This document shows positions 3,172 through 37,654 of a DNA stretch of 64,000 bases, piece by piece. The stretch is taken from NCBI GenBank assembly GCA_002269645.1, contig NIVC01002435.1:17149-81148 (forward strand), given 5' to 3'. Numbering within the stretch: the first letter of the stretch is position 1; each line of letters starts with the position of its first letter. The notes under the pieces were generated by a model that was not told the origin of the DNA, did not search any database, and saw nothing but the letters and a program-made list of their open reading frames with translations. This DNA is from Macrostomum lignano (Eukaryota). Made by a program: the position numbers and the translations under genes.

Positions 3172-6100
3172 TTAAGCAGTCGAGGTCTGGTTTTGATTCA
3201 TTGTGGACCCGTTGCCAGGCAGTGTGTTGTTGAGATCGTCCACCTTTGACGGGCCGTGTTTGATGATGGTGAAGATCTGGAGTGTGAATCATGGCTTGAT
3301 TTTCGTAAGCCCTCTAAAAGCCCTAGGACAGAGCGGCTTACCTTACTACCGAAGACGATAATAACCACAGTGGTGCAGCAGAGAAAGATGCAGCCATTGA
3401 TGAGGAGAAAACGCACGTTGACCTCGCTATTCGGCAGCACGAACGCCATGGTCACGCCAATAGCGCCCATTACCAAGGTGTTGTACACGCAAACGCCAAT
3501 TTTCTTGGAATCGTTGAGGCTCTCAACGTGCACCATGCGGGTCTCCCAGGCAAAGAATATGCCAAAGATGAGAAGCAGGCCTGCCCATTCAGAATAATGT
3601 ACTTAAAGGTAACGATTATGCAAAAATAAAACTTTATTGGCGTACTCATGTGCACAAGACATTAAAAAGGCTGCAAGTTCGACCAGTTTTCTCACGGTCT
3701 CCACCGCACCTGCAGATATATCAATAATTGAGGCTATTGAAATCTGTGAGGTTATGTGGACCTTGAGCCCCCTATTGAGCCGACAGTATGCCTGTGGAGT
3801 TCACCGAGCATAATCTATCGTTTCTTACTCGACTGAACAACAGACATTTATGACTCAACAAAAACCTGACGCTTGCCTTTGATCCCGAGAAAAATTCCGG
3901 TCCACATGACCGAATTGTTGCAGTCACACTCCTGAATTTCCTGGGATTCGATTGTTCCAGAGCTGAGCCACTCCTGGGTGAGCAGGGTGACGGAAATTCG
4001 ATACGAATGGACAGCGGATATTCGATGGAACAGGAAAGTGGCACAAAATACCTACTCACCACAACGGCTAACTGAGTGATGTTGACTTTGATGGGGTCCT
4101 TGACAGCCCAGACTATGAAGACGATGATGTCAGCCAAGACGATTGCCAGAACCATGGCCACCAGGTGCATATCCTTGATTGACTGCAATCAAATATTATG
4201 ATTTGGCATGCACATTGAGCTTGGAAAACTATTAAGTGTGTGATGCTCGGTTATACTGAATGAATCAAAGTTGAGCATGATTGTCCTAAAAAACTCAGCT
4301 TACCACTCGGCGCAAATTTTTTGTCGTGAAGATGACGTGCACCCGCCAAGTCTTGGACAGCATGGCTCCATAAGCCACCGAGTAGCCAATGCACAGGCAA
4401 ATCGTCTGCAGCCAGCAGTAGACTGCAGAGTTGCTCCAGTGTCCGGAGATGGCGCTGAAGATGCTGGACATGTAGCACATGATGCATCCGACAGCCATTA
4501 GGTTGTTGATATTCGGCGAGGACATCTTGATGAAGCGAAGATGGCGGAAAGCTAAGTTTACGCCAATCGAAGAGATGGTGAGAGCCACGCCGACAGAGCA
4601 AAGAAAAATTATGACGATGGCGTTGCCCCTTGGAACCGAGATGCGATACGTGACTCTCTTGGGCATGTCGCTGGGTGGCTGTCCACCTGTGCATGGTTTT
4701 AGCTTAATCAAGTATCCAACAGCAGAGTAAAACGAGTTGCATAACTTGAAATTCAGTAAGCCTAGCTTTTTAAAAGCGAGTTTTTTGATGCCATGCTCGA
4801 CAGTTCTTTTTTTATGAAAAAGACTCACCAGCGAACACCAAATCCTCGTACCACTCAAGCTTATCCGCGTAGGTGTCAATAAGGGCAACCGGTACGCCCT
4901 TAAAGCCTAAAATTTCGGTTATAAAACACTATATTGCAGTTACATGGAGCGATAGTGTGAATTAGGCTTGTAAAAATCACATCGACTCTCACTTCGAATC
5001 TGGTAAGCGATCGCGTTAGCCAGGCGATCTCCATTCTGGTCCAGCTTTACGCGACCCTGCGAATACGATTTTTAAAATACCAAATCTTCAGCTCAGATCA
5101 TCAATAATTCTTCAGGTCTTGCACTTTGTCACTTACAGTTAGTCCATTAAAATCGACAGCTCTGACATTCTCCAACAGTTCAGTTTTGAATGGACTGCTG
5201 TCCAGATCCAAAGCCGTTGAGTAGGCGTGCTTCATCAGCGTTTTGTTAAGCGCAATGGCCGCAACAGTCATTGCGTCCAAACGTGTAGCAAGGCCTCTGA
5301 TCGAGACCACACTTTCGTTAACCAGGTGGGGGTACCGTCGTAGGAAGCTGGCGAACAGGCTGCTGATGGGCTGACGTTTGGGGTTGCAAAGAAGGGTTGG
5401 CGTATTAGTAAACTGAATTACAGCTGCATTGTAATAAGTAGTTAAGTATTGATCAGTCAGACGCTCTTCAATCAGTCGCTGTGAAGCGCGAACTCACCAC
5501 CTGGCCGATTCCAGTTTCATTGTCAAAGATTTCAAAATGAGACATAAAATAGAGCGAGCCCTCTGCTCCATCGGCTAGCATCTGGCTGCTGCAGGTGTCC
5601 TGCAGATTGTGTGAGAAGGTTCGCGTAAATCCCAGTTGGATCCAGAAGTAGCGAGGTCCAACCGCGTTGTTCATCTTAAGCTGTTTAGAAAAAAATGGAG
5701 AATTTTTTCTGAAATCGCATGTCGATATCTATTCTTATTTAATATGTGCACTATAACGGTGCAACGGCGCTCACCAGACATTCGAACTTTGTCCCAGTTT
5801 CGATATTTCCAGCTCGAACGACGATAAAAATTCGAATGTTCTTGTTCTGGAAGTGTTTGGTCAATTCAAGATAAAATCTATTGTAGCTAATTTATGCTCT
5901 TGAAAGTTTGAAAATTCTTTGCGATACAAAAGCGTACCAGCAATTGTTTCAGACTGTCTTCCGGATTATGTTGATAAACAGCTTTGCTCAAAACAGTAAT
6001 CTTATTCTCAGCTAGCAAAACCTCCAACTGTTGTGTAATCTAAAATCGGTTTTGGATGATAGTGAAGTTATATCCATATTTTCCGAAGAAAGAGAAAATC

Positions 6101-8069
6101 TCATGAAAAAAATTCTGAGAAAAAACGTAGAAGTGACTTGTATAGACCACGAAACTCGAAACTCGAAGCGTCGACGACCTGGTTAGAGCTCAGTGAACAA
6201 AGTGAGTTCTACCAATGAGACATTGATGGCTAAGAACATCGGTCAGGACTGGTGCGTTCTGACTTGGATTGCACCATTGGCGATTAATTTATGCGCCCAT
6301 ATCGAATAAAATACGTGCGGGCTAAATGACAGACGGGCTAAATAGCTAAAAGCAGCTGTTGAGATATCAAGACAAAACATGGAGTCTCAATCAGCTATTA
6401 AAGTGCAAGCTAAACGATGGAAAAATCGATATACGAACCGCCTTAAAGTTCGAAAAAACACCTCTTCGGTCAATGGAAATCGACATGGGACGGCTTCGAG
6501 GTGCTCTAAAGATTGGCGGCAATGAAGGATGAAACAGGAATAAGAAGTTTTGCCTCCACGCCCTGCGGTACAGCTTCAGTCTGAAAACATTTAAGCTGGT
6601 AGAAAACTTGCCAAGCCTGAAAAAAGAAGACCCCAGTAAGATTATTGATACCATAAGAATTTCGTCACAGGAGAGATGAAGAGACTTTCAACAGACTCAA
6701 ATTCTGGTTGAGATGTCAGCGCGTTGATGATGATGATGATTCATGACCGTCAAGAAGTTGGCGAGCAGGTGCATTACTCTAAATGCTGCATGCAGTGCGG
6801 GGAACTTCTGCTGTGCGATAAAACCGTCACTGGATTCCACGACACAAGCGCCATGGAGAAGCCAAAATTCATTTGCGAATCTGCAGAATTCAGACTATAA
6901 GAATTAGGGCTCGGACAATGAATTTGTAGATATCAGGCAGGGTATTGGGGCACTGGTACCTTGACGTCTGTCGATATCAGCCAGGGTATTGGGGCACTGG
7001 TACCTTGACGTCTGTCGATATCAGCCAGGGTATTGGGGCACTGGTACCTTGACGTCTGTCGATATCAGCCAGGGTATTGGGGCACTGGTACCTTGACGTC
7101 TGTCGATATCAGCCAGGGTATTGGGGCACTGGTACCTTGACGTCTGTCGACATCAGCCAGAGTATTGGGGCACTGGTACCTTGACGTCTGTCGATATCAG
7201 CCAGGGTATTAGGGCACTGGTACCTTGACATCTGCAGATATCAGCCTCAGGGTATTGGGGTACTGGTACCTTGACATCTGCAGATATCAGCCAGGGTATT
7301 GGGGTACTGGGACACTGACGTCTGAGAGTTTTTTTCGAGGCTTTTTAGACTCACCGCGGAAACTCCGTCATAGTCACTAGCGAGAAGGCCCACATTTTTC
7401 CAGTTGTATCGCTTCAAAATTTGTATCATACCCACCAGATAAAGGCTGTTAGACGTGGTGGTTCGTGAGAAGTACGGATAGACGGACTTGTCCGCCAAAG
7501 CGGGGGTAGTGGCTGTGGCGCTAATCTGGAATAAGGATAAGCGTATGTGGAATTCTATATTAGAGTCAAACTCAAACACGGAAATGAACCTTGGAATGGC
7601 CCAAGAATGAAAGAGCATAAAATTGAACGACTAATCATACCTGGGGCAGGTAGTAGTAGCCCCCGGCCAGCTCGGACAGAACCACCGCCTGGTTTGAGTA
7701 GGCAGGCCCGAACAGAAGAGCTTTGTTCGGTTCGTTCACGTAGCCGTCAATGAACTTGCGAAGCGCGCTCCCCTGCAGCTCCTATGGCAACGAAAGAAAG
7801 GATTTTGACTGCGAACATCATTTCAGGTTGCCAATCTCATCAAAACTCACCTTTTCGGCGCAGAAGAAAGAGGCATCAATGCGAAACGTATAGTTAAACT
7901 CTGGCTGCGCAGTCACATTGTTAATGTAGTCGAGGGCGAAGGAGTAGTATTCGACATCGAACCGGAGTGTGGCGTTCTTTGAGCAGATCACCAGGGTGTG
8001 CACAGTTGTGCGGTTGTCCGATTGAGCTCTTACTGTCGCTATTAACAGCAACAGAAGCAGATATCGCAT
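3172..8069 (-). CDS. GABA-B-receptor-like class C GPCR, paralog 2, complete, about 736 aa. Exons 7851-8069, 7641-7781, 7355-7525, 5938-6039, 5775-5846, 5498-5680, 5137-5370, 4993-5056, 4829-4906, 4304-4686, 4060-4182, 3877-3973, 3342-3580, 3172-3276
   Basis: Signal peptide; Venus-flytrap motifs (LADKSVYPYFSRT, RYNWKNVGLL, DFNGLTGRVKLDQNGDR); GGQPPSD linker; 7TM motifs typical of GABA-B receptors (IKMSSPNINNL, GAMLSKTWRVH, KGLLLIFGIFFAWETR, LNDSKKIGVCVYN). All 14 exons are phase-consistent and sum to 2211 nt ending in TAA. Confidence 0.88.
6929..7325. repeat. 44-bp minisatellite, about 9 copies, in intron 3 of GPCR paralog 2
   Basis: Unit gatatcagccagggtattggggcactggtaccttgacgtctgtc; period of 44 read directly (ttgacg at 6961 and 7005). 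Confidence 0.95.
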
Positions 8070-9879: not shown

Positions 9880-11835
9880 ACAATAATTTTCTTAAGTGTT
9901 ATTTGACCGAAGCCTTCGCAAGGACTTCTAGACTTCTAGTCTAGAAGTCCTTGAGCCTTCGTAGTTTTATCTTGAGTAATTTGCCCGTGGGGCGTAAAAC
10001 AACCGATCATCTCAACTCCAAACGAGCTCTGAGATCTTAACGTTCCGTAATACGACCAAATTACGGTGGTGGCAGCAACTACCCTACTAACAGTAATCAG
10101 CTCTGCAAATCGACACATTACTTTCGGTGTCAGAATCTCCGGTGTCTACTAACTGAACGACCGTGCCGCTCTAACGACCGCTCTGCTACGATTACAACTA
10201 CCCTCCCCCCGGACTTGAGAACCCGGCTGTCGGAGTAAAACAGGAGAAAATTCGTTGTGATTCGTCTGCGCGACTTTCCGGATTTAATTCGCGCGAACTC
10301 AACGTCGTTCGGTTTCGAAGAAACCCAATTTTTCAAACCACACGCAACCAATATATTTTATTTTCTCCGCCCCACCTCAATATGAAAAGGCCCAAAGGTC
10401 GTGTAATTTCTTTGAGGTTAATTTCCTGGAAATATACCAACCTACACTATTGAGATAGGAAAAAATCATTTTTTTCATCACAAAATCTATAATTGCATTT
10501 GATCTGAGGCAGTGAAGATTAGGCCTACCATTTTTTTATTTAGCTTTTACAGCATGTTACTCTGCTCAGTCTGCTGCATTTTTTGCAGTGAAAGTTTCAT
10601 CACATTGACACATTGTTTATTTTATTTTATAAGCCCAAGGCCAAGGCAAACTCTCAGTCTTCTTAAATCTCAAGTGGCATTAGCTGAAATTTTTGCTTTG
10701 TTCCTTCTTGAATAAAGCATATTTGTGCCACAGAAGATGCCAGACCTAATCATTGAATGTTAATTTAGACATAGGCATAGGGGCCTATCTCTTATAATAG
10801 AATTATTAAAAAAGAAAAAACTAGGCTGTCATTGTCTGGCAAGTGGCAATCAAAGCCAAAGGGCATGCTTGGAGGGCCTCAACTGAAAAAATTGATGATA
10901 TGATAAACAAAAAAATGTTTTTGTTCTAATTGGGGTTTTAAAAAGACACAGCTATATATTTATAATCTTAACTAGGCCCTCAATTTTTTTAAATTGCTTG
11001 TCTTTATCCTATATTTGTTTAAGTTAGCATAATTAACTATAACTAGGCCAGCAACTAGACAATAGTTTTATCTAGAAAGCATATTTGTTGCCCAATATAT
11101 AATAATTAAAAAAAGATATATTTTTATTGGCTTATTATTTTATTTAATTAATTAAAATAGGGTATAGGGCCTAGGGCCTAATGTATATTTTTATATTGTT
11201 TGCTATTCAATCAATAAAATAAGTTATATATTTTTTATTTCAATTTTCCATGTTTTCTTTGTTTTATTTATTTTATTACCTTATATTACTGAAGTAGGGG
11301 TGAAAAAAAAGTTTTCTTGGAATGGTTGGTTTTGAAGTTGGCTGACACCAGTGGGGTAGGGCTGGGGCAGATTCCATGTTTTGCTGATGTCGAGTTCACA
11401 CGAATAAAACCAGAAAAAATTGCACAGTTGAATCTCAACGGGAAAACTTTCTCCTTTTACTCCAACAGCCAGGTTCTCAAGTCCAGTGAGAGGGTAGTCT
11501 TAATCATAGCAAAGCAGTCGTGTAGCGGCGCGGTCATTCAAAGCAATGAAACACCATAGATTTTGACACCATAGTTACATTGCGTTGATTTGCTGAGCTT
11601 GTTATTGTCAGTAGGGTAGTTGCTGCCACCACCGTAATTTATGTATTATGGAACAAATAAGTCTCAGAGCTTTCTTTGAAATGAGAACTTTGGTTAGGCC
11701 TATTTTATGTCCCATGGGCAAAAGACTCAAAAAGATACTATGGCTTATAGATCAACAAAAAATAGGGATTCAAAGTTTATTAAGCGTTGTTACTTATTTA
11801 TTGATAAGCAGGCTAAAATTATTTGATGTTACTTT
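9880..11835. repeat. Diverged inverted pair of about 0.5 kb (about 9880-10390 vs about 11285-11835), probably transposon-derived
   Basis: The reverse complement of the left arm aligns with the right arm, including the identical block gtagggtagttgctgccaccaccgtaattt and the pair gggttctcaagtcc/aggttctcaagtcc. Boundaries are approximate. Confidence 0.8.
9919..9953. repeat. Perfect 16-bp-arm hairpin with a 3-nt loop
   Basis: caaggacttctagact-tct-agtctagaagtccttg. Confidence 0.85.
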
Positions 11836-12861
11836 TGACGACAATGAAATTCGCAGGCGGCGCCTAGGTTCTGGAAAAAATAGAAATTAGATACGCTGAG
11901 TTTAAGGAGCAAACAGCAACAGAAAGGGAAAGGAAAACGAAACAAAAAACGCAAATAAAACATTTTCACGAAAATAAAAGGGGTTTGTATAGTGGAGAAA
12001 ACAGGTCCACATATAGGAGCATCTAGTGGACAAAGCATTGGATATACATGGTTCACAAATTGGGTTGCATGCAAAAACCATTAGGAGAAACGCATTTCAA
12101 CAAAACTTCCAGCATGAGGGCACGCATGTGCACTGCATGGACTAACTGTTGGAAAAACCTGTTGGACAAAGTCCAAACCAAGGAAAATAAAATGTAATTT
12201 TTTGTACATTGCGTGGACAGTCTTAGTGGAAATAGTTTTAGTTAGTCAGCGATACTTGTTCAATCAAAGTGGCATCCACCTGCCACATTACACATATATA
12301 ATTACATTTATGCCTAATACCTGACCAAGGTAAGTTGCAAAAATGCCAAACCACAAAATAGTAAATGTAAAAAAGTGGAAAAGAAAAAGGGCAGAAAAGG
12401 AAAGAAAAAAAGAAACAAAAAGGAAAAAATAAAGAAAAATATAGGGAAAGAAGCAAAAACATACCATGTTATAGCTAGAGCCGGAGGCAACTAAATTGCA
12501 TTTTTTGGCAAAACTAAATTGCATTAGCTAGGTAAAATTTTGAAGTTTGGCATGCTTGTCTTTTTACATTCTCATTGTTTGTTCTTGGTTAATTTTTGTG
12601 ATATACTTACATTGACGAAACCTTAAGTAACATATTATTCATATATAGTATAGGGTAGAGCCTAGATTTAACTCAAACAGGGCATAATATTATCAAGTAT
12701 TTTTGGTAACTTGTCATATATCTACTTGTTTTTTTAGCAAAATATTATATAATAAAGTAGGCCTATATATAGGAAGATAAATTATTAGGATTAAGATATT
12801 AATAATAATTAACAATACAAAACTCTTATATGTAAATAAATTCCTAGACAATTATACTATA

Positions 12862-13716
12862 TATTTGAGTGAGCCAAAAGTTTCTAAAATCTTTTTGAAT
12901 CCAACCTCAGTTAACTTTTGTATATGGAAAAGCTTAAAAGCAGCAACCATCTACTATGTTGTTGGATAGCCTAATCATCATTCTTTAGCTTAGCATTGCT
13001 CAGTTTCACTTGACTTAGCTGCAAGGAGGCTCCGTGCATCCAGAAACAGCGAGGAGGCATTGCTGCCCATTTTGCTAACCCCTGGCGACCACGGGCAGCT
13101 AGTGCTATGGTGTCGCGCAGGGAGTTCTGGTGGCGCTGGCATCCTCAGCATGGTCCCCCTCCGGAGAGTCCAGGAGGTGGATTGTCACTCGCCCAGTAGC
13201 TGTCTGGCCCTATTTTCTGGTAGGTCATCCCACATGGCATGGCTGTAAACACAGAGGTCATCTGCATGCAGCAAACCGGAGTAGGTTGCCCATTTGCTGA
13301 AATCTGTGTACCCGGGGCTCTGTGACAAGGTGTTTCTGTTTGACAATGCACAACCTCACAAAGCAAGACTCACCTAGGCCAAGCTGGCAAGCATGGGCTT
13401 CAGTGTTTTATCCCACCCACTATACTTGCTAGACCTCTTGCCATGTGACTACCACGTGTTTAGGTCCCTCTAGAGCTTTTGCAATAGACAGTGGTTCACC
13501 AACAAGCAACATGTAGAGCAGGCAGTGTAGAAATGGATAGATTCAAGGCCTGCAAGCTTCTAAAGGGAGGGGATTGAGGCATTGCCAGCAAGATGGGAAA
13601 GGGCCAGGGCCTTGAATGGCAACTACATCACATCACTGTAAACTGTTTTTTTTCTTGAGACTATTTGTTACAGTTTTCAAATGTTTAAATCCTAGAAACT
13701 TTTGGCTCACCTAATA
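12862..13716 (+). mobile_element. Old internally deleted mariner element with a degenerate transposase C-terminus (about 13225-13641)
   Basis: Terminal inverted repeats tatttgagtgagccaaaagtttcta (12862) and tagaaacttttggctcacctaata (to 13716), flanked by TA. Translation VFLFDNAQPH..HPLYLLDLLPCDYHVFRSL*..GIEALPARW..NGNYI is a decayed DDD-transposase end. Confidence 0.8.
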
Positions 13717-13728
13717 TAATATGTAGTA

Positions 13729-15059
13729 CAAGGGGTGCGCAAAAAGTTTTGGCAACTGGGTTCCCAATTGCAGATAAATTGTTAGTAAATCTTAAAACGT
13801 TATTTAAGTCCTTCTATGTAATCTCCGCCACGTTCTATGCATTTCTGGTGACGGCAGATCCATGCCTCAAAGGCAGCGCAGTACTCTGAAGCTGGCATGG
13901 TGTTCAGCTCTGAATTAATGTGGCGAGCCAGGTCTTGGGGCCGCTGAAAATGGCATCCAGCCATGCGTTCGGTCAGCTTTGGGAATGCCCAGAAGTCGCA
14001 GGGTGGCAAATCAGGACTGTACGGAGGGTGCGGTATCATTTTGAGCTTGTTATCGGCCAAAAAGCTCGTTGTCATGGCCGCAGTGTGGCTGGAGGCATTG
14101 TCATGGTGCAAGTGATTTCTGCCACTTTGGAGGCGGGTTGGCTGCTTTTCCATGACTGAAGCCACGACTTTAGGCAAAACCTCGCCAGTATAGAACGTGG
14201 CATTGACGTTCTGTCCATTTGGCACCATAACAACTGTCTCTGGCCCATTGATGCTGAAAAAGACGACAAACATCTGCTTCCTTGAGTGAAACCCTGGGTG
14301 CAGAACAGTTGGACGGTCTTCATCGGAACCAATCCAAACCTTGTTTTGGTTCTTGTGAGGCACTTGGAAGTAGTAGAACCACTTCTCATCACCAGTCACG
14401 ACATCAGTAAGTCATTTAGTGCCACCTTCGCCAAAGCATCACAGAAATTCTTGGCTGCATCAAACCCTCTCCTGCTTCTGCTCTGCTGTCAGTGCATGAG
14501 GTACCCAACGGGCCATGACCTTGTGGAGGCCAAGATAGTCATGCAAGATGGTTCAGACACTGCCATCAGAAATGCCGATTGTCTGGCTAAGTAGTGCAAC
14601 AGTGATATTGCGATCTTCGTCCACCAGCTGTCGCACAGCAACAATGTTCTGCTCAGTCACGGATGTCATTGGCCTCCCAGAATGAGGGCTGTTGGTCATG
14701 GAGCATCGACCAGCACTGACCAATTCAATCCAACGGGCGACGGTGTGGTACGAAGGGGCTTGATCTGCTACAACTTGGACTAGCTCGGCATGAATTTTGG
14801 TAGCATTTTCTCCAAGCTGCGATCGCATGAAAACATAAAATCTCCACTGATCAGCAGTGATATTTTCCATTTGAAGGCTGAAAACGAGACTATATGTTAA
14901 TCAAAATGCTCTAGGAAGCGAAAAAATCAATGCAATGAGCTGAAAATTTATGAACAAATGCAAAATATGGTCATATTTATGAAATTAAAAAATGACTACG
15001 TTTAAAGTTTTATTTAAAAAGTTATGAGCCAGTTGCCAAGACTTTTTGCACACCCCTTG
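13729..15059 (-). mobile_element. Full-length (1331 bp) Tc1/mariner DNA transposon, DD34D type
   Basis: TIRs caaggggtgcgcaaaaagttttggcaactgg and ccagttgccaagactttttgcacaccccttg; TA target duplications at 13727-13728 and 15060-15061. Confidence 0.95.
13800..14870 (-). pseudogene. Mariner transposase (356 codons), no frameshifts but four in-frame TGA stops
   Basis: HTH N-terminus; motifs ARWVPHALT, VTGDEKW, HHDNASSH and HPPYSPDLPPCDF with D-34-D spacing. TGA codons at 14553-14555, 14460-14462, 14439-14441 and 14412-14414. Confidence 0.93.
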
Positions 15060-16131
15060 TATGAAGCCAGCTATAAATATTATTGTTAATGCCATTGTGC
15101 TATGCATATAATTCTCAATCCTTTAGTCTGTTCACTAGACTTCCTCCCTAGTTTATCTAATAGACACCCCCTTAAAATATTAGTATAATATATAATGTAT
15201 GTATGATCTGCATCCATAGAACAATAGAACATAGTGGGGACTATATATTAGAGGTAGGCCTATGATTTTGATTCTGAATCTATAATTTCTAGATTTTTAA
15301 TTCCTAACATCCTAAAAAATCCTAGGATTATTAGGATCCCAATCTTATCCAATCCCAAAATATTTGACATTGTCTCATCTATATATTAATTCATAGATAA
15401 ATATTCTAATCTCATTCTTATATTTTCAAAAAATGATCAATCTAACCTCTATAAGATATTGTCCTATCCCTAGCTAAGGAATGCAAAATTAATTATATAA
15501 GCTGTTGATCTGCCTTGAAGTATAGCAAACAATTTGTATTATAATTATCTAAAGAACAACATCTTTGTAGTTTATTTTAATAAGAAATACCTTTCAGTTA
15601 AAAAGAAATATCTTATCTTTTATCCCTACTAATTTAGAGCTATTTTAAGTGGTCTCTTTTATGATATAGTGTTTACATTGACATAAAATCTAATTTTAGA
15701 TTATCACAAGATTTAAATCATGGAATATTTTATTAATGTGTTAAATATCATTAAATGTCATAAGATATGCTTTAAAACTCAAACTATAAATTTACATAGT
15801 GTTACTATTATTGGCATTTTAAATTTCAGACCATGATGCCAATGACATTATAATTTAATGGCAATCTATAAAGGGGATATGATTTATGAATTTCAGTCAT
15901 AGCCAATAAAAAATCTAGTTAAAGGTGCGCTAAGGACAAATACACCACCTTTAAAATGCATGAGCAAAAATGCAAACCTGACAGCCAAATAGTAAAGTCT
16001 CAAACTGTAATTATAGTGAATGCAAATATCAAGCAATACAATCTGTAAAGTCAAACATTTTGTCATTTGTCATTTCATGTAAATCACTGAGCCTGCTTCA
16101 GAAAATACAAAATTATTTACCATCAGTGGAG

Positions 16132-16762
16132 ATGCTAATTGTAAGTGCTATTCCATATTTACATATAATTTACAATATTGCCATTGTGAACCTGCTTTGC
16201 ACCAGAAATCTCAAACAAAAGCATATTGAGCTACTTATAGTAGTTCTCGTTAAGTTGAGCCAGCCCTAGCCTAGACTCCAATTCTCCAAAAACTGGCATT
16301 GCAATTCGCAGAAAAACCTCAGCCCGAATCCGGCCAACCCAGTCTACCTGGTGGAGTTCTGCAGCACCCGCCTGCTGCTGGACTGCCCGCTGGACTTTGG
16401 CCCCCTGCTGCGCTGCTGCCCCCGGCATCCGCTGCTTGTCGGCGAGGCATCGCATCAGCCAGCCGCCGAGGCGGAGGGCAAGGCGTGGCCAGGGGATTCC
16501 GCCAGGCCCGACGGTCTGGTGAGTTTGTGGAGCTTTGACTGTCAGGCTTAAATGCAGCTATAGAGCTGATGGTTTCCTTAATGGTAAAAATGCTATGCAA
16601 GTATTTAGCTTTTTTGTCAGAACATCGTGGGTGCCAGTTGGTAACCAGAGTAAGCAGTGGCGATAAAAATGTAGCGGTAGTAGTAGTAGTAGTGGTAGTA
16701 GTAGCAGCAGTAGTAGTAGTAGCAGTAGTAGTAGTAGCAGTAGTAGTAGCAGCAGTAGTAGC

Positions 16763-16802
<40 letters not shown>

Positions 16803-16868
16803 AGTAGTAGTAGTAGTGGTAGTAGTAGTTGTAGTAGCAGTAGTAGTAGTAGCAGTAGTAGTTGTAGC

Positions 16869-16933
<65 letters not shown>

Positions 16934-16934
16934 C

Positions 16935-16966
<32 letters not shown>

Positions 16967-16997
16967 CAGTAGTAGTAGTAGTAGTAGTAGTAGTAGC

Positions 16998-17032
<35 letters not shown>

Positions 17033-17033
17033 C

Positions 17034-17066
<33 letters not shown>

Positions 17067-17231
17067 TGTAGTAGTATTATTAGTGGTAGTAGTAGTTTTA
17101 GTAGCAGTAGTAGTAGTAGTAGCAGCAGTAGTAGTGGTAGTAGTAGTATTATTAGTGGTAGTAGTAGTTTTAGTAGCAGTAGTAGTAGTAGCAGTAGTAG
17201 TAGTAGCAGTAGTAGTAGCAGCAGTAGTAGC

Positions 17232-17277
<46 letters not shown>

Positions 17278-17343
17278 AGTAGTAGTAGTAGTGGTAGTAG
17301 TAGTTGTAGTAGCAGTAGTAGTAGTAGCAGTAGTAGTTGTAGC

Positions 17344-17413
<70 letters not shown>

Positions 17414-20400
17414 AGTAGTAGTAGTAGTGGTAGTAGTAGTTGTAGTAGCAGTAGTAGTAGTAGCAGTAGTAGTTGTAGCAGTAGTAGTAGTAGTAGTAGT
17501 AGTAGCAGTAGTGGTAGTAGTAGCAGTAGTGGTAGTAGTAGCAGTAGTAGTAGTAGTAGTAGTAGCAGTAGTAGCAGTAGTAGAAGTAGTATTAGTAGTA
17601 GTATTAGTGGTAGTAGTAGCAGTAGTAGCAGTAGTAGAAGTAGTATTAGTAGTAGTATTAGTGGTAGTAGTAGTTGTAGTAGTGTTATAATGTATCACTT
17701 ATTTATGATGTAATCTAGCTCAGGTCTCTCTAATAATTTTATCCGTAATTAATTGTCCCCTTCAATTTTAACTCCAAGTCCCACCTGCGGCTTTGTTACA
17801 GCCATTCAAAACCGTGGAAGGCGTGGAGCTCCTCGACGCACCACCCTGCGTGTCGATGCCCTTCAGCACCAAGGTGAGTCCAACTGAGGCCATTATTCAT
17901 GGCCTCTGCTTCTGTGTCGATCGCACTTTTACAAGCTAGTAGAATTTGTGCCAAACCCTTGCAGCACTGCCCTGTGGTGTGGAGCACCGTTGACGCCGTG
18001 CTCATTTCCAGCTACCACGCCATCCTGGGCATCCCCTACCTGACCGGCTGCACCGATTTTGCTGGCAGAATTTTTGCCACCGAGCCGTCTATCGAGTTTG
18101 GCAGGTGATTTTGCTTCTGCTGTCAATTCGTGACCCGTGTCTGAGGTGTTCTCAAGTCTGCACTTAGTTATTGCTCTGCTTGTTAACTTGTTTTTATAGG
18201 CAGATTCTGGAGGATTTGGCCAACTCGGTGGACCAGCTGCCTCACTGCGGCAAATTGGAGGACGTGGTGAAGCGACTCAGGTAGGCTATGAGCATATTTC
18301 TAATCGGATATGAGGCTTTAGAGCAATTGGCATTTTAACTGACTGCCAGTGAGATGGTATACCGACAGGCAGATATTGACATGGCTTGGCTACTGATACG
18401 GCTGACAGACATGTTGGCAGCTACTGACAAAGGAACTGAGAGCTTACTGTAACTGTCAGAACCCATCTGACACAGAATAGTATCTGTCAGAACCCATCTG
18501 ACCAGAAGAGTATCTGTCAGAACCCATCTGACACAGAAGAGTATCTGTCAGAACCCATCTGACACAGAAGAGTATCTGTCAGAACCCATCTGACACAGAA
18601 GAGTATCTGTCAGAACCCATCTGACACAGAAGAGTATCTGTCAGAAGCCATCTGACACAGAAGAGTATCTGTCAGAACCCATCTGACACAGAAGAGTATC
18701 TGTCAGAAGCCATCTGACACAGAAGAGTATCTGTCAGAACCCATCTGACACAGAAGAGTATCTGTCAGAACCCATCTGACGCAGAAGAGTATCTGTCAGA
18801 ACCCATCTGACACAGAGGAGTATCTGTCAGAACCCATCTGACACAGAAGAGTATCTGTCAGAACCCATCTGACGCAGAAGAGTATCTGTCAGAACCCATC
18901 TGACACAGAATAGTATCTGTCAGAACCCATCTGACACAGAAGAGTATCTGTCAGAACCCATCTGACACAGAAGAGTATCTGTCAGAACCCATCTGACACA
19001 GAAGAGTATCTGTCAGAACCCATCTGACACAGAAGAGTATCTGTCAGAACCCATCTGACACAGAAGAGTATCTGTCAGAACCCATCTGACACAGAAGAGT
19101 ATCTGTCAGAACCCATCTGACACAGAAGAGTATCTGTCAGAACCCATCTGACACAGAAGAGTACATGTATCTGTCAGAACCCATCGCCCCATCCTCCCTA
19201 GAGAGGCGGGCCACCCGCTGGCGGACCAGGCCGAGAACTGGATGCCGGTGTTCACGGCAGCTCAGGTGCAGTCAGCATTCGACAGCGTCCAGCGAGTATC
19301 GTTCAACCAGCGAGTCCAGCTGCTCAACGACCTGCTGCTCACCCCAGTCAGCTCGGGCTTCTGCATCGGCGGCTGCAACTGGCTGATCGAGAGCGACTTC
19401 CACAGAATGGCCTACATGTCCGCCTCTTCGCAGTGGACCTGCCACCCCCTGCCCATGAGCTGGCAGGCTCTGGTCGGCTGCGACCTGCTGCTGTTTAACG
19501 GGGCGTGCCTGCTGCCGGGCCAGACTCCCGACCGATCAGTGGAGGACATCTGCTCAGCTCTAGTGACCGTGCTCAGCCAGGTGAGTCCTGCTTTTGGCTG
19601 TGATGCTGAAATTGGCTGCTCAGACTGATTGGGGCTGCTCATTGACTGATTGGGGCTGCTCATGAATGATTGAGGCTGCCATGACTGATTGGGGCTGCTC
19701 ATTGACTGATTGGGGCTGCTCATGAATGATTGAGGCTGCTCAGACTGATTGGGGCTGCTCATTGACTGATTGGGGCTGCTCATGAATGATTGAGGCTGCC
19801 ATGACTGATTGGGGCTGCTCATTGACTGATTGGGGCTGCTCATGACTGATTGGGGCTGCTCATGACTGATTGGGGCTGCTCATTGACTGATTGGGGCTGC
19901 TCATGAATGATTGAGGCTGCCATGACTGATTGGGGCTGCTCATGACTGATTGGGGCTGCTCATGACTGATTGGGGCTGCTCATGACTGATTGGGGCTGCT
20001 CATGACTGATTGGGGCTGCTCATGACTGATTGGGGCTGCTCATGACTGTTTGGGGCTGCTCATGACTGATTGGGGCTGCTTATGACTGATTGGGGCTGCT
20101 TATGACTGATTGGGGCTGCTCATGACTGATTGGGGCTGCTCATGACTGATTGGGGCTGCTCATGACTGATTGGGGCTACTCATGAATGATTGGGGCTGGA
20201 ACTGACTGCTCATGATGCTTAGGCCCCTCACCCTAAATACTAACTGTCGCATCCCCATCCCGCTCGCGTCGGCACTGCAGGGCGGCAGCGCTCTGTTTCC
20301 CTGCCGGCCGTGCGGCGTGCTGTTCGACCTGCTGGAGTCCATCTCCAACCACCTGGACGCCAAGGGCATGCGCCGCTACCCCATGTACCTGGTCTCTGCC

Positions 20401-23400
20401 CGGGCCAAGAACAGCCTCAGCTTTGCGGACATCTGCGGCGAGTGGCTGTCAGCTGAGCGGCAGAAGCGGCTGTACACGGCTGATGTGCCGTTCGGGCACG
20501 CCGAAGTGAGACCCGCTTAGGGGCTGGCCTCTCTTCCGTTGCCTAATTAGGTCTATCTCTCCCAGTCTCCTCTCTTCCCCATCCCTTCCAATCTTATATT
20601 TTCCCATGCCTTCCAGTCCCCTCTCTTCCCCATCTCCTCCAGTCTCCTCTCTTACCCATCTCTTCCCATCTTTCAGTTCCCCTTTCACCTTATCTATCAA
20701 AATTTTTGCCCTCTACATCACCCAGTAAGTCTCTATGGACCTTAATATTTTATTCTCTACTCTCCTTCCCAGTCTCTAATGTTTTCCCATCCCTCTTGTT
20801 TTTACTTTATGTCTGCCTCGTGACTCACGCCTTTGCCCCACCTCCCCCCTCACCCAGATGCTTCAGCAGAACCAGCTCCAGCAGTTTTCCAGCCTGGGCA
20901 GCGACTTCGGCCGGCAGTGCAGCCAGCCCTGCATCGTGTTCGCCACCGACCCCTGCCTGCGCCTTGGCGAGGCCGTTCACCTGGCCGCCGCCTGGGGCCG
21001 CGACCGGCCCAACGCCCTGTTCCTCACCGATCCGCAGTTCGCCGACGTGCAGACCCTGGCGCCGTTCCAGCCGCTGGCGATGCCCGTGAGGATTCCCTGA
21101 CTACAGCTGCTTAATGTACAGTGTGTGCCCTCTGCCCCGCACTGTGCACTGCATACTATCACTTATCCCCAGTTTTATCGCAGTTTTATATCAGGGCCCG
21201 AGTGCCGAAAAATACCCTGGCTTACACTGTATATCCTCAGATGTCAGGGTCCCAGTGCCCCAATACCCTGGCTTATTCCTCAGATTTCGGGGTCCCAGTG
21301 CCCCAATGCCCTGGCTTATACCCTCAGATGTCAGGCCCCAGTGCCCCAATACCCTGGCGTATATCCTCAGATTTCGGGGTCCCAGTGCCCCAATGCCCTG
21401 GCTTATACCCTCAGATGTCAGGGTCCCAGTGCCCCAATGCCCTGGCTTATACCCTCAGATGTCAGGGTCCCAGTGCCCCAATACCCTGGCTTATACCCTC
21501 AGATGTCAGGGTCCCAGTGCCCCAATGCCCTGGCTTATACCCTCAGATGTCAGGGTCCCAGTGCCCCAATACCCTGGCTTATACCCTCAGATGTCAGGGT
21601 CCCAGTGCCCCAATGCCCTGGCTTATATCCTCAGATGTCAGGGTCCCAGTGCCCCAATACCCTGGCTTATACCCTCAGATGTCAGGGTCCCAGTGCCCCA
21701 ATGCCCTGGCTTATATCCTCAGATGTCAGGGTCCCAGTGCCCCAATACCCTGGCTTATTCCTCAGATGTCAGGGTCCCAGTGCCCGAATGCCCTGGCTTA
21801 TATCCTCAGATGTCAGGCCCCAGTGCCCCAATACCCTGGCTTATATCCTCAGATGTCAGGCCCCAGTGCCCCAATACCCTGGCTTATATCCTCAGATGTC
21901 AGGGTCCCAGTGCCCCAATACCCTGGCTTATACCCTCAGATGTCAGGGTCCCAGTGCCCCAATGCCCTGGCTTATACCCTCAGATGTCAGGGTCCCAGTG
22001 CCCCAATGCCCTGGCTTATACCCTCAGATGTCAGGGTCCCAGTGCCCCAATACCCTGGCTTATATCCTCAGATGTCAGGGTCCCAGTGCCCCAATGCCCT
22101 GGCTTATATCCTCAGATTTCAGGGTCCCAGTGCCTCAATGCCCTGGCTTATACCCTCAGATGTCAGGGTCCCAGTGCCCCAATGCCCTGGCTTATACCCT
22201 CAGATGTCAGGGTCCCAGTGCCCCAATACCCTGGCTTATATCCTCAGATGCTAATGCATCGCTAATTAGGAAGCTCCCTGTGCCCCTGACTTATATCCTC
22301 AGACGTTCACAGACCCTGGAGGTCATGCATCGCACAGAAATCCCCGGGGTCAATTTTCGGTCACGAGGCTAAGCCCCAAATTCAGGATCGTGTACTGGCC
22401 GTTTTGAACTGCAGGTTCACCGCTTCACTATGGACATGCGGATGCAGCCGTCTCAGGCTGCTGATGTGCTCAGCCTGCTCAGGTGCGGTCGCCTGGTGAT
22501 GCCGGAGGCCTATCGCCGCCTCGACTGCCATGGCGGCTGTCCCGTGAGCTACTCGCAGTACCTGTCAGTCATGCAGTTCCCTCTGGATTCGTCCGACCAG
22601 CTACTGGAGCTGAGCCCCGCTCTGGCCAGGACTGTCCGGCCTGTCCGGGTCGGAGACAGGCAGCTCGCACTGCTGGTATGTTGAGATACTGATTGTGACA
22701 CTGGTTGTGGCACTGGTTGTGGCACTGGTTGTGGCACTAACTGTTGCACTGACTATGACACTGGTTGTGATACTGACTGTGGCACTGGTTGTGGCACTGG
22801 TTGTGGCACTGGTTGTGGCACTGGTTGTGGCACTGGTTGTGGCACTGGTTGTGGCACTGGTTGTGGCACTGGTTGTGGTACTGACTGTGACACTGGTTGT
22901 GGCACTGGTTGTGGCACTGGTTGTGGCACTGGTTGTGGCACTGGTTGTGGTACTGACTGTGGCACTGGTTGTGGCACTGGTTGTGGCACTGGTTGTGGCA
23001 CTGGTTGTGGCACTGGTTGTGGCACTGGTTGTGGCACTGGTTGTGGCACTGTGGTCCATTAACTGTGGTACTTATTGTGGCACTGGTTGCGGCACTGATT
23101 GTAACTTTCCTCCTGCTGCTAGGAGGGCGAGGTGACCATGGGTCGCAGCGGTCGGCGCCGTCTGGAGCCGCTCTCCGAGGCGGCCAAGTCGTCCGGCTCC
23201 ACCGGCGGGGCTGTCGGCTTCGGCAGCGGCAGCGAGCTGAAGCCCCTGCTGGCCGCGGTGGAGAGCTCCCAGACGGCCAAGCCGCTGCTGACTGGCCAGC
23301 TGCGGCCGGAGGAGCTGGTGCGCCAGCTGCGCGCCAGGAACTTCCCCAGCGCCAAGCACGAGCTGGCAGAGGACGGCTCCTGGAGCATCTTCCTGGAGGT

Positions 23401-23518
23401 CGGGCACCAGGAGGCGCTGATCACGGGGTCGGCCGTGGCCACGCATGTCTACTGCGATGACGAGAAAATCCGGCTGGTTGTGCGCGAGTCGCTGCTGGCC
23501 TGTCTGGTGCTGGTTTGA
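16132..23518 (+). CDS. INTS9: Integrator complex subunit 9, about 665 aa. Exons 16132-16140, 16312-16518, 17802-17873, 17965-18104, 18200-18280, 19202-19580, 20281-20505, 20858-21085, 22415-22675, 23123-23518
   Basis: Colinear similarity to remembered INTS9: LLLDCPLD, STVDAVLISSYH..PYLT..ATEP, PVSSGFCIGGCNWLIES, FPCRPCGVLFDLLE, QPCIVF, LAPFQPLAM, KPLLTGQL, THVYCDDE.IR. Exons are phase-consistent and sum to 1998 nt. Confidence 0.93.
16676..17684. repeat. About 1-kb (TAG)n/(CAG)-interrupted trinucleotide microsatellite in INTS9 intron 2
   Basis: Continuous tagtagtag/cagtag run; source of the poly-V/S/T/L/Y pseudo-ORFs. Confidence 0.97.
18452..19184. repeat. 31-bp minisatellite, about 23 copies, INTS9 intron 5
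   Basis: Unit gtatctgtcagaacccatctgacacagaaga, with an internal inverted tgtcaga/tctgaca; the last unit merges into the 3' splice site at 19201. Confidence 0.95.
19623..20192. repeat. 20-bp minisatellite, about 28 copies, INTS9 intron 6
   Basis: Unit catgactgattggggctgct with a higher-order 60-bp variant pattern at the 5' end. Confidence 0.95.
21185..22250. repeat. 44-bp minisatellite, about 24 copies, INTS9 intron 8
   Basis: Unit ctcagatgtcagggtcccagtgccccaat(a/g)ccctggcttata(t/c)c. Confidence 0.95.
22694..23098. repeat. 12-bp minisatellite, INTS9 intron 9
   Basis: Unit ggttgtggcact, about 33 copies. Confidence 0.95.
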
Positions 23519-23673
23519 CACTACTGATAGTAGCTTGAATTTGGCGGCGCTAGAAATTAAACAAGTGCATTTGTTAATTTGAAATATATTTGTCAGATAT
23601 GCATTACTGATATGTATTATTGTTTCTTATTTATTGCTTGTAAAGGTATTTTTATATGTTGTAATTAGTGGAA

Positions 23674-24470
23674 ATAGATAAATAAGACAGCGGCACTGTG
23701 CAGTCATCAGTGTACATAGATAGATAAGACAGCGGCACTGTGCAGTCATCAGTGTACATAGATAGATAAGACAGCGGCACTGTGCAGTCATCAGTGTACA
23801 TAGATAGAAAAGACAGCGGCACTGTGCAGTCATCAGTGTACATAGATAGATAAGACAGCGGCACTGTGCAGTCATCAGTGTACATAGATAGATAAGACAG
23901 CGGCACTGTGCAGTCATCAGTGTACATAGATAGATAAGACAGCGGCACTGTGCAGTCATCAGTGTACATAGATAGAAAAGACAGCGGCACTGTGCAGTCA
24001 TCAGTGTACATAGATAAGACAGCGGCACTGTGCAGTCATCAGTGTACATAGATAGAAAAGACAGCGGCACTGTGCAGTCATCAGTGTACATAGATAGATA
24101 AGACAGCGGCACTGTGCAGTCATCAGTGTACATAGATAGATAAGACAGCGGCACTGTGCAGTCATCAGTGTACATAGATAGATAAGACAGCGGCACTGTG
24201 CAGTCATCAGTGTACATAGATAGATAAGACAGCGGCACTGTGCAGTCATCAGTGTACATAGATAGATAAGACAGCGGCACTGTGCAGTCATCAGTGTACA
24301 TAGATAGATAAGACAGCGGCACTGTGCAGTCATCAGTGTACATAGATAGATAAGACAGCGGCACTGTGCAGTCATCAGTGTACATAGATAGATAAGACAG
24401 CGGCACTGTGCAGTCATCAGTGTACATAGATAGATAAGACAGCGGCATTGTGCAGTCATCAGTGTACATA
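23674..24470. repeat. 42-bp minisatellite, about 19 copies, between INTS9 and SNX4
   Basis: Unit gacagcggcactgtgcagtcatcagtgtacatagatagataa. Confidence 0.95.
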
Positions 24471-24528
24471 CAGGTCGATAGTTGGGTCAGCATTAATTTT
24501 ACAAGCCTGGAACTTCCACAACCGCAGC

Positions 24529-27500
24529 ATGGCTGAGCCGGCAGCTCCCGAAGATCCGCAGCAGCAGCTGCAGGCCCAGTCTGAGCAGCAGCAGCCGGTG
24601 CAGTTGTCGCTGCCGAAGCCCAGCGGCCGCTACCTTCGAGTCCGAATCGCTGACCAATAGCGCTCGCCTGACGACCGAGTCGCCTACGTGGTGGAGACGC
24701 GCGTGCTCGACCAGGAGGCGACGCCGCAGGAGCTGCGCGACCTGCTGGGCAGCCACGCCCTGCAGACGTGCCGCTACTACTCGGACTTCGATCTGCTGCG
24801 CGGCTTCCTGGAGCTGAAATATCCCGACTGCCTGATCCCGCCGCTGCCGGACAAGCTTTCCTCCTACGCGCCCTGGAAGATTGCGGGACAGAAGTTTGAC
24901 CAGGTCTGCTGACTCTGCTGGTTTGCATTCTTGTCCCTAATCCACCTTTCAGAATCTCTGATAATCCGCCTTTCAGAATCTCCGATAATCCACCTTTGAG
25001 AATCTCCGATAATCCACCTTTGAGAATCTCTGATAATCCACCTTTGAGAATCTCTGATAATCCACCTTTGACATTATTCGCCAGGCTCAAACAGCGCAGT
25101 CCATTCAAGCCAACCCCATCTTCCGTCCCGCAGGACTTCCTCGACAACCGCCGCTTCGGCCTGGAGCTGTTCATCAACCGGGTGCTGTGCCATCGCCGCC
25201 TGAGCTTGTGCCAGCAGGTGGTGTCCTTCCTTCGTCACGACTCTGAATGGCGCCTGCGCGTCTTCACGCCGGCCATTGGCCAGCAGCTGGACGCCGCAAT
25301 TTCCGCGCGAAGCGCCGCATTTCGCTTGCGCTCGCCGCTGCCCGCCGTAGCGACGATGCGGACCAACGCGGCCGCGGTTCGGGCGGCTGTTCAGGTGAAC
25401 CTGTGGGACATCTGGGGGCTTATCAGTGAGCTGACTGGCTTATCAGTGAGCTGACTGGCTTATCAGTGAGCTGACTGGCTTATCAGTGAGCTGACTGGCT
25501 TATCAGTGAGCTGACTGGCTTATCAGTGAGCTGACTGGCTTATCAGTGAGCTGACTGGCTTATCAGTGAGCTGACTGGCTTATCAGAGAGCTGACTGGCT
25601 TATCAGTGAGCTGACTGGCTTATCAGTGAGCTGACTGGCTTATCAGTGAGCTGACTGGCTTATCAGTGAGCTGACTGGCTTATCAGTGAGCTGACTGGCT
25701 TATCAGTGAGCTGACTGGCTTATCAGTGAGCTGACTGGCTTATCAGAGAGCTGACTGGCTTATCAGTGAGCTGACTGGCTTATCAGTGAGCTGACTGGCT
25801 TATCAGTGAGCTGACTGGCTTATCAGTGAGCTGACTGGCTTATCAGTGAGCTGACTGGCTTATCAGAGAGCTGACTGGCTTATCAGTGAGCTGACTGGCT
25901 TATCAGAGAGCTGACTGGCTTATCAGTGAGCTGACTGGCTTATCAGAGAGCTGACTGGCTTATCAGTGAGCTGACTGGCTTATCAGTGGAGGATCAGGAT
26001 CAATCAAGCAGGCTTAGCTCAGAGCCAAAGTCCCCATCCCGCATGCCCTCAGGCGGTGGCCAAGGCCTACGAGCAGCTGGTGGCCCGGCACTACCGCATT
26101 CACCGGCTCCATTCAACCCTCGGCGGCATCCTCAGCGACTGGTGCGGCCTGGAGGAGGACCCGGCATTTGCTGACGCCCTGCAGACGGCCGGCCACTACA
26201 TGGACGTCTATGCTAGCGGAGCCGATTCCGCGGTTGGCGAAGACGACGAGCTGCTGAATCGGCTGCGCGAGGCCGCCGGCTTCTGCGACTCCGTGGCTGG
26301 CCTCTGCCGGCGCCTGGAGCTCAAGGTGAGCCGCTGCTGGTCTTCTTATTAGCTTTTATGTGGTTGAACTGGCATGGGGATTCCGCCTGAAAAATTGCCC
26401 AAGAATCGCCACTCCAAAACCAGATGAGAATTCTCCTGTCCCACCAGATGAGAATTCTCCTGTCCCACCAGATGAGAATTCCCTTGCCCACCCAGGTCAG
26501 AATTCCCCTGCCTACCCAGATAGGAATGTCCCCTGCTAACTCAGGTGAGAATTTCCCTGCCCATCCTGGTGAGAATTTCCCTGCCCATCCTGGTGAGAAT
26601 TTCCCTGCCCATCCTGGTGATAATTCCCCTGCCCATCCTGGTGAGAATTTCCCTGCCCATCCTGGTGAGAATTTCCCTGCCCATCCTGGTGATAATTCCC
26701 CTGCCCATCCTGGTGAGAATTTCCCTGCCCATCCTGGTGAGAATTTCCCTGCCCATCCTGGTGAGAATTTCCCTGCCCATCCTGGTGAGAATTTCCCTGC
26801 CCAGCCTGGTAAGAATTCCCCTGCCCACCCAGGTGAGAATTCCCCTGCCCACCCAGGTGAGAATTCCCCTGCCCACCCAGGTGAGAATTCCCCTGCCCAC
26901 CCAGGTGAGAATTCTCCTGCCCACCCAGGTGAGAATTCCCCTGCCCACCCAGGTGAGAATTCCCCTGCCCACCCAGGTGAGAATTCCCCTGCCCACCCAG
27001 GTGAGAATTCTCCTGCCCACCCAGGTGAGAATTCCCCTGCCCACCCAGGTGAGAATTCCCCTGCCAACTCAGGTGAGAATTCCCCTGCCAACTCAAGTGA
27101 GAATTCCCCTGCCAACTCAGGTGAGAATTCTCCTGCCAACTCAGGTGAGAATTCCCCTGCCCATCCTGGTGAGAATTTCCCTGCCCACCCTGGTAAGAAT
27201 TCCCCTGCCCACCCAGGTGAGAATTCCCCTGCCCACCCAGGTGAGAATTCCCCTGCCAACTCAGGTGAGAATTCTCCTGCCAACTCAGGTGAGAATTCCC
27301 CTGCCAACTCAGGTGAGAATTCCCCTGCCAACTCAGGTGAGAATTCCCCTGCCCATCCTGGTGAGAATTTCCCTGCCCACCCTGGTAAGAATTCCCCTGC
27401 CCACCCAGGTGAGAATCGTCTTCCCCAACTTATAGCACGATGTAAGTGAACAGTGACTTTTACAATTTAATCTATTTTTAGCGCGGGGCTACACGGGTTG

Positions 27501-28491: not shown

Positions 28492-28877
28492 GAGGGCTGG
28501 GGCTGCTAAGCCTGCTTTAAAGTCTGTGGGATCATCACGACTTTACTAAAATAAGTTTTATGACTTGAAGGGTCCTGTTCGGTCGTGAACTGTTGCAAAA
28601 TTCTCACCTGTATATTTAGCGCGAGGCACGTGATTGGCCTTTGCTTGCAGACCAGATGCTTTAATTGTATAATATTGCAGTGCGATCTTGTTATCTACCA
28701 ATGTCAAGTTCTGCGCGTGGTTTTGCGCTACAGGCTTTCTGTAATTCAATTTCTGAATGCGTTATGATAATGATTTAAACTTCTCTAAATCAATGTCAGC
28801 ATTGTGTACGAATTTCTCGAATAACCTCATCATTGCATTGTAAATTTATCTGTGTATAATGATCACGTTGTTCAGGT

Positions 28878-29312
28878 CCGCAGTTGCTGGGCCAGCCACC
28901 CAGATCCTCAGTTGCAGGGGCCAGCCTCCCAGATCCTCGTTGCTAAGCCAGCCTCCCAGATCCTCAGTTGCTATGCTAGCCTCCCAGATCCTCAGTTGCT
29001 GGGCCAGCCTCCCAGATCCTCAGTTGCTATGCCAGCCTCTCAGATCCGCAGTTGCTATGCTAGCCTCCCAGATCCTCGGTTACTTTGCCAGCCTCCCAGA
29101 GTGTCAGTTGCTAAGCCAGCCTCCCAGATCCTCAGTTGCAGGGGCCAGCCTCCCAGATCCTCGGTTACTTTGCCAGCCTTCCAGAGTGTCAGTTGCTAAG
29201 CCAGCCTCCCAGATCCTCAGTTGCAGGGGCCAGCCTCCCAGATCCTCGGTTACTTTGCCAGCCTCCCAGAGTGTCAGTTGCTAAGCCAGCCTCCCAGATC
29301 CTCAGTTGCTAG
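28878..29312. repeat. Degenerate minisatellite of about 27-28 bp, downstream of SNX4
   Basis: Recurring agcctcccagatcctcagttgc core with higher-order blocks. Confidence 0.9.
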
Positions 29313-37586: not shown

Positions 37587-37654
37587 TTTGAAGTAATTTC
37601 TCAAACACCTGGCTTCATAGATTGATGCCAAGCTCACTAGCGCCATAGGCTACC

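Follow-up and report, generated by a model that had tools for sequence, protein, structure and literature searches.

CpG decay of a mariner transposon upstream of INTS9 in Macrostomum lignano, a possible reporter of germline methylation

How does a transposase gene come to hold four TGA stop codons within 144 bp in a reading frame without any frameshift? The question is raised by a mariner copy in the genome of Macrostomum lignano, within a stretch of 64,000 nucleotides that we analysed as a whole and refer to as the window (contig NIVC01002435.1, positions 17,149 to 81,148 of the forward strand, assembly GCA_002269645.1). The original prediction for this locus was that the gene had been killed only by these stops, that all of them derived from CGA arginine codons, and that the transposon had therefore been CpG-methylated in the germline, a surprising situation if the host was a flatworm.

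The mariner copy and its stop codons

The element (positions 13,727 to 15,061, minus strand; 1335 bp, terminal TAs included) is a full-length, dead copy of a DD34D mariner belonging to a family that we call A. Its ends are 33-nt inverted arms with TA on both sides, the 5′ repeat at 15,029–15,061 on the minus strand and the 3′ repeat at 13,727–13,759 on the plus strand, and the flanks differ from locus to locus. The transposase frame (14,870 to 13,800, minus strand; 356 codons, 1071 nt) matches Pfam Transposase_1 above the cut-off and keeps an intact D,D(34)D catalytic triad formed by D161, D257 and D292, with 34 residues separating the last two. It also carries WVPHAL, and YSPDLPPCDF where the intact copy L002 reads YSPDLAPCDF; we take these to be the WVPH-L and YSPDLAP-D motifs of mariners, and the family presumably resembles the irritans subfamily, a placement for which our literature search gave no paper. 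In its size, TA ends, short inverted repeats, WVPHAL and YSPD motifs and triad, family A is like other DD34D mariners, a standard member with no peculiarity of its own. Its nearest named relative is a transposase of Portunus trituberculatus (B3CK23, 52% identity), and the best relative without a name is 74% identical. At least 64 matches to family A occur in the genome, at least 21 of them full-length (40 of 110 candidates were scored). Four copies, L002 to L005, show an open transposase frame and zero private non-CpG changes; the family was active very recently. L002 and L003 have equal counts at separate sites, and L003 is inserted into the coding region of an ABC transporter.

The four stops, all on the minus strand, are codons 106 (14,553–14,555), 137 (14,460–14,462), 144 (14,439–14,441) and 153 (14,412–14,414). 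A family consensus was obtained as the majority of 15 independent loci, for which the window copy, the same-site L011/L012 and three duplicates were set aside, the loci classed as duplicates being L007, L012, L018 and L019; L022 to L030 (partial or 78–87% identical) were also kept out. Because this consensus reads CGA at the four codons (in 11, 13, 9 and 13 of the 15 loci, respectively), the stops are CGA>TGA changes, and arginine at these positions had been correctly anticipated. The remaining variants are CAA (a CpG hit on the opposite strand), TGA once and CGC once, and none of the 15 loci has TGG at any of the four codons, so that neither TGG nor TGA, either of which would have spoken against the proposal, is the family state. 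Codon 144 is also TGA in L008 and in L011/L012, and the natural copy L002 encodes arginine at all four. Recoding of TGA was rejected, since intact copies carry CGA. As for the clustering of the stops, it follows from where the seven CGA codons of the family lie, four of them at 106–153, and a special event was rejected: changing at least four of the seven has a probability of 0.06 at the CpG rate of this copy versus 6e-7 at its non-CpG rate.

The stops are part of a broader decay. The window copy differs from the consensus at 42 positions, 28 of which are CpG transitions (17 CG>TG and 11 CG>CA), so that 28 of 142 CpG positions changed versus 6 of 511 other C/G positions (Fisher p=1e-14), the dominance of CpG transitions expected by the original prediction; a few of the other 14 differences are subfamily variants. 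Within the reading frame, 23 CpG transitions comprise 8 silent, 11 missense and 4 nonsense changes, and besides these there are an A>P substitution within YSPDLAPCD and the loss of the stop codon; a gene killed only by four TGA codons is thus too narrow a description. The inverted repeats do differ by the reported CG>TG change, located at 15,050, plus one family-wide T/C difference, and two further CpG transitions, at 15,058 and 13,730, affect both ends alike.

Decay and the site of insertion

The surroundings of the copy are themselves depleted. It lies in a CpG-poor, AT-rich patch of about 6 kb (10,400–16,300) with a sharp left edge, and CpG-poor patches at the sampled loci are 1–8 kb wide. 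Those stretches of the window patch without a match in any other sampled locus hold 0–2 CpG per 200 bases, with GpC persisting at 2–11. Adjoining the element there is an internally deleted mariner of a second family, B (12,863–13,716, plus strand), with transitions at 25 of 51 aligned CpG positions; its deletion is filled by about 185 bases (13,016–13,200) matching the flank of another family B copy on contig C1, a pattern such as abortive gap repair would give. A third repeat has one copy inside the patch (11,386–11,730, minus strand; 9 CpG, with 19 CpGs of its sister reading TG or CA) and the sister copy just outside (9,972–10,306, plus strand; 29 CpG), a built-in control in which the relative ages of the two are not established. 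Perfectly matching contigs of low depth from two runs at 11,715–12,344 were not counted as evidence of transcription.

Elsewhere in the window, a class C GPCR gene (7tm_3; about 2,700–8,050, minus strand) reads away from the patch within a region of CpG observed/expected ratio (o/e) near 0.9, and has spliced contigs from runs that we took, by guess, as RNA (RNA-type from here on), none of the runs listed as containing the stretch being recorded as RNA. Two units in tandem, each with two ORFs (171 aa and about 700 aa) and each duplicated with divergence, occupy 37,649–46,661.

The relation between element and surroundings was examined over the independent loci of both families. In family A, with tandem repeats masked in the flanks, flank o/e is 0.63 or less at 10 loci, each of which carries 10–56 CpG transitions, and 0.78 or more at 5 loci, which carry 0–3 apiece, although four of these five are simply young; over the 15 loci, decay correlates with flank o/e at rho −0.69 (p=0.005). 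The fifth, L016, is old and dead, with 25 private non-CpG changes, two stops and a frameshift, yet shows CpG transitions at only 3 of 142 positions (p=6e-6 against L014), and it is the sole old full-length family A copy that is undecayed.

Family B loci were collected from the best hits and with an end motif free of CpG, two routes that favour younger copies. Five duplicates and L162 (no 400-base alignment) were dropped, L052 to L055, L057 and L061 were skipped, and C892, C655 and C483 were re-included later. Among the resulting 25 independent loci, 122 of 416 CpG positions (29%) changed in the five with flank o/e below 0.6, versus 114 of 2406 (4.7%) in the other 20, a split that was chosen post hoc; the two oldest loci belong to the low-flank five. 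No relation was seen between private transversions and flank o/e (rho −0.06). There are exceptions in both directions: L156 (25%) and L161 (14%) are decayed at mean flank o/e of 0.69 and 0.88, with one flank poor in each case, and L159 has only 4 of 54 CpG changed in flanks of o/e 0.19. What is new here is that decay follows the site, as seen in two mariner families, and it is very probably the position of the insertion, not the element, that decides decay.

Flanks are often more depleted than the elements that they surround, as in L006, where 14 transitions in 71 CpG pairs stand beside flanks of o/e 0.07, and therefore the patches are likely to be older than the insertions. The mariner would thus have landed in DNA already methylated in the germline, on account of its position upstream of INTS9 and not of its own sequence. 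Spontaneous deamination of the methylated cytosines would then have written the CGA>TGA stops, the CGA codons making the loss lethal.

The best-surviving alternative is a host defence in which transposons, singly or in clusters, are the target of methylation that spreads to the flanks, the patches being old transposon graveyards that happen to collect 5′ of housekeeping genes. In this regard, at least three repeat copies lie in the window patch, CpG-poor flanks surround most of the old family A copies, tandem repeats are poor in CpG beside both of the gene classes compared below (o/e 0.39 and 0.20), so that some repeats may be targets, and in the annelid Owenia methylation is increased by transposons lying in introns (PMC11292947). 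A mark of this kind should reach copies wherever they are. However, 18 of the 20 family B loci in normal flanks show less than 9% decay, including L146 and L172, which are nested in LTR or LINE sequence, L016 grew old without decaying, and repeats cover 15% of CpG-poor upstream bins versus 9% of other bins (p=0.23, with a library made of the sampled loci); the depletion of flanks beyond that of the elements runs the same way. We consider this explanation unlikely. If the original prediction meant the transposon itself as the target, that part is not supported, since the excess of CpG changes is small or absent in sister copies whose surroundings are CpG-normal.

Patches upstream of housekeeping genes

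If the site matters and methylation came first, the genes nearby deserve a closer view. To the right of the window element begins the gene for Integrator subunit 9 (INTS9), on the plus strand, with exon 1 at 16,080–16,140 (ATG at 16,132), a GT-AG intron at 16,141–16,311, exon 2 at 16,312–16,518 (a loose contig end was matched here by eye) and a coding exon at 19,200–19,580 (E 1.5e-22). In three runs, RNA-type contigs extend ahead of exon 1 into a loose end at 16,072 that is absent from the window; two papers, both on M. lignano, give it as part of the 35-nt spliced leader of this species, a match that also settles the supposed flatworm host. The mariner lies 1.0–2.4 kb upstream of this trans-splice site, and the patch ends at exon 1.

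The leader junction (16,072–16,080) has no AG in the window copy or in L012 and a canonical acceptor in L011. The contigs that carry the leader may therefore derive from the latter copy and not from that of the window; INTS9 of the window and L012 may be impaired, or may be spliced at another acceptor some 20 bases further along. The element may also lie upstream of the INTS9 promoter rather than inside the transcription unit; RAMPAGE data are reported to be available (PMC5730564). Close behind INTS9 on the same strand follows a PX-domain (sorting-nexin-like) gene, both within 16,080–29,300, and the two possibly form an operon. Along this interval the CpG o/e of unique sequence climbs from 0.62 to about 1. 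The introns of both genes (16,677–29,317) are full of tandem arrays of 0.4–1 kb, most with CpG o/e of 0–0.14, which we had considered as a sign of gene-body methylation; that idea was dropped, arrays being equally poor beside ion-channel genes, and the CpG-poor arrays may represent a separate, repeat-directed methylation.

Beyond INTS9, a conserved gene (by Pfam or PDB match) reads away within 6 kb at 7 of the 11 decayed family A loci, the other six genes encoding a protein kinase, flotillin, a Bax inhibitor, Josephin/ataxin-3, Mst1/Hippo and Bcl-2. At the remaining four loci there are gene candidates at 6–9 kb, with presumptive names. In the case of ataxin-3, RNA-type contigs of four runs join exons on either side of the element, with the ATG exon 2.1 kb to one side, and therefore that family A copy sits in intron 1.

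These neighbours led to a comparison in which genes were chosen by family, regardless of transposons, and scored for any 1-kb bin with CpG o/e below 0.35 in the 4 kb that precede the first matched exon. In a first set, with the threshold picked after looking, a poor bin was found at 7 of 14 proteasome versus 1 of 24 ion-channel loci. In a second set, with the rule fixed beforehand, the counts were 10 of 24 for CCT/Hsp60 and Sm/LSm versus 0 of 16 for GPCR loci (p=0.003; 16 of 30 planned controls). Preference for housekeeping genes, a canonical trait of gene-body methylation, is thus present as a footprint, with an upstream patch at 17 of 38 housekeeping versus 1 of 40 receptor loci, half of them under the pre-set rule and with control sets that contain paralogues and are not independent. 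Mean upstream o/e does not differ significantly between housekeeping genes and controls (p=0.11 and 0.09), and more than half of the housekeeping genes have no patch: the effect is all-or-none. Operons have been described (PMC8629364), and a gene that lacks a patch may occupy an internal place in one.

Other canonical traits of gene-body methylation fare differently. A position inside the transcription unit holds for the intron of ataxin-3 and may hold at INTS9, where the leader junction is what is seen. Occupation of coding exons and of the middle of the gene was not found: poor bins are absent between +4 and +8 kb at all 14 proteasome loci, and the exons of these genes show no loss of CpG at synonymous junctions (o/e 1.0 versus 0.98). 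Moreover, the family B copies L149, L155 and L166 are undecayed in mid-gene introns of conserved genes, whose names we presume; L149 is young, and private non-CpG changes number 10 in L155 and 20 in L166. L151 is likewise undecayed 0.6–2 kb upstream of a nuclear-receptor-like gene. The intact exons and these three undecayed intronic copies conflict with ordinary whole-gene-body methylation. Such a methylation could nevertheless be as in Ciona intestinalis and cover all that is transcribed from housekeeping genes, with exon CpG restored by selection or by GC-biased conversion and the loss visible only in unconstrained 5′ DNA. A high GC3 of exons (0.68–0.79) and the somewhat depleted first exons beside two patches (0.68 and 0.43) would agree with it, as would the Ciona repeats described in PMC3827831, whose methylation is passive and limited to copies within methylated genes. 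We regard this as improbable given the undepleted synonymous junctions, the absence of poor bins farther into the genes and the mid-gene copies just described.

The likeness to Ciona goes further than this, as far as PMC3827831 describes it: repeat copies are likewise methylated by location, the element is not the target, and the domains go with broadly expressed genes. Where the two part is in position, the Ciona domain being central in the gene and dropping at its ends, whereas in Macrostomum we find 1–8 kb of 5′ non-coding DNA with undepleted exons; moreover, a methylome stands there and a mutational footprint here. With Owenia fusiformis there is a bias to introns in common, according to the relevant part of PMC11292947, although Owenia also methylates some intergenic transposons, whereas Macrostomum copies outside patches are mostly without a footprint and the bias is 5′.

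The preferred reading, methylation by position, can now be stated more fully. The patch would be the transcribed and discarded 5′ leader (outron) of INTS9, under a transcription-linked methylation restricted to the 5′ end; that the patch is a transcribed leader is a reading we favour by a modest margin. As a whole, the explanation, in which non-coding 5′ stretches (outrons and first introns) are methylated in the germline and the element reports this passively, is probably correct as judged from mutational footprints. More tentatively, Macrostomum could have rerouted gene-body methylation to the first kilobases of housekeeping units, mostly outrons and first introns, largely sparing coding exons and free-standing transposons, in such a way that leaders trap incoming DNA transposons and kill them rapidly and irreversibly via their CGA codons.

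Probable deamination, methylating enzymes and significance

Deamination of 5-methylcytosine is the established chemistry for a CG>TG/CA pattern. Over 17 family A loci, transitions affect 358 of 2409 CpG positions (14.9%), 89 of 3596 CpA (2.5%), 28 of 2477 CpC (1.1%) and 37 of 2591 CpT (1.4%), with CpG changes balanced between strands (193 C>T versus 165 G>A) and mostly private to each insertion. A view of the process is offered by L011, the same insertion as the window copy on another contig with common flanks: 63 of 1335 sites differ between the two, 41 of them of CpG type, in a region where nearby DNA outside the element diverges by 1–4%. Decay therefore continued in the germline after insertion, independently in the two copies, which makes both a methylating donor as the source of the decay and a single-strand deaminase less likely. 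The CpA rate stands above those of CpC and CpT, for which non-CpG methylation is a possible source, and private non-CpG changes are rich in transitions in decayed copies and not in L016.

Altogether, 5-methylcytosine is almost certainly the cause of the CpG decay, as judged from this spectrum. A process other than 5mC (an APOBEC/AID-type deaminase, a RIP-like mechanism, decay in a methylating donor before transfer, or assembly error) might account for the raised non-CpG C transitions of decayed copies, CpA most of all, but it is scarcely credible in the face of a 6- to 13-fold preference for the CpG context, of hits on both strands within single copies such as that of the window, of changes mostly private to each insertion, and of four copies with an open frame and at most one CpG change each.

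Is the host equipped for such a methylation? Both enzymes whose presence was to be checked are in the genome, as catalytic-domain exons and not as assembled whole genes: DNMT1 exons at three places (E 2e-64) and DNMT3 exons at three places (E 9e-21). Exons of DNMT2 also occur at three places. SRA domains are found at six, corresponding to two distinct genes with three places each (C2851, C446 and C3241; C876, C1156 and C2935), a UHRF1-type protein being among those encoded. In the proposed mechanism, DNMT3 would lay the mark, and DNMT1 together with a UHRF1-type protein would keep it. The germline methylation of this copy proposed in the original prediction thus stands as the best reading of the CGA>TGA changes, the dominance of CpG transitions and the presence of DNMT1 and DNMT3, with 5mC itself deduced from its footprint. 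The element of surprise does not stand. For M. lignano, DNMT1/3 and/or low 5mC are already in print in parts of three works (PMC9246332, PMC11292947, PMC10658182), so methylation in this host is not in itself news. These reports concern the same organism group and the same enzymes, and small patches fit a low genome-wide level. As to where Macrostomum places its 5mC, a passage of the 2022 review (PMC9246332) calls it unknown.

CpG decay of a dead transposon is textbook matter and the two enzymes were known in Macrostomum. In the literature searched, which left most subscription journals outside its scope, we found neither a Macrostomum methylome nor a link between outrons and 5mC; the 2015 genome paper of M. 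lignano or its supplement (Wasik 2015) may already describe a 5mC distribution. What the mariner copies provide is a set of naturally inserted, identical reporters of germline methylation, which point to short 5′ non-coding patches at housekeeping genes, and not to transposons as such or to coding exons. The patches would offer a sequence-only way of locating outrons. If a methylome confirms them, they would reveal an unusual form of gene-body methylation tied to spliced-leader trans-splicing, in an organism that serves as a model for stem cells and regeneration.
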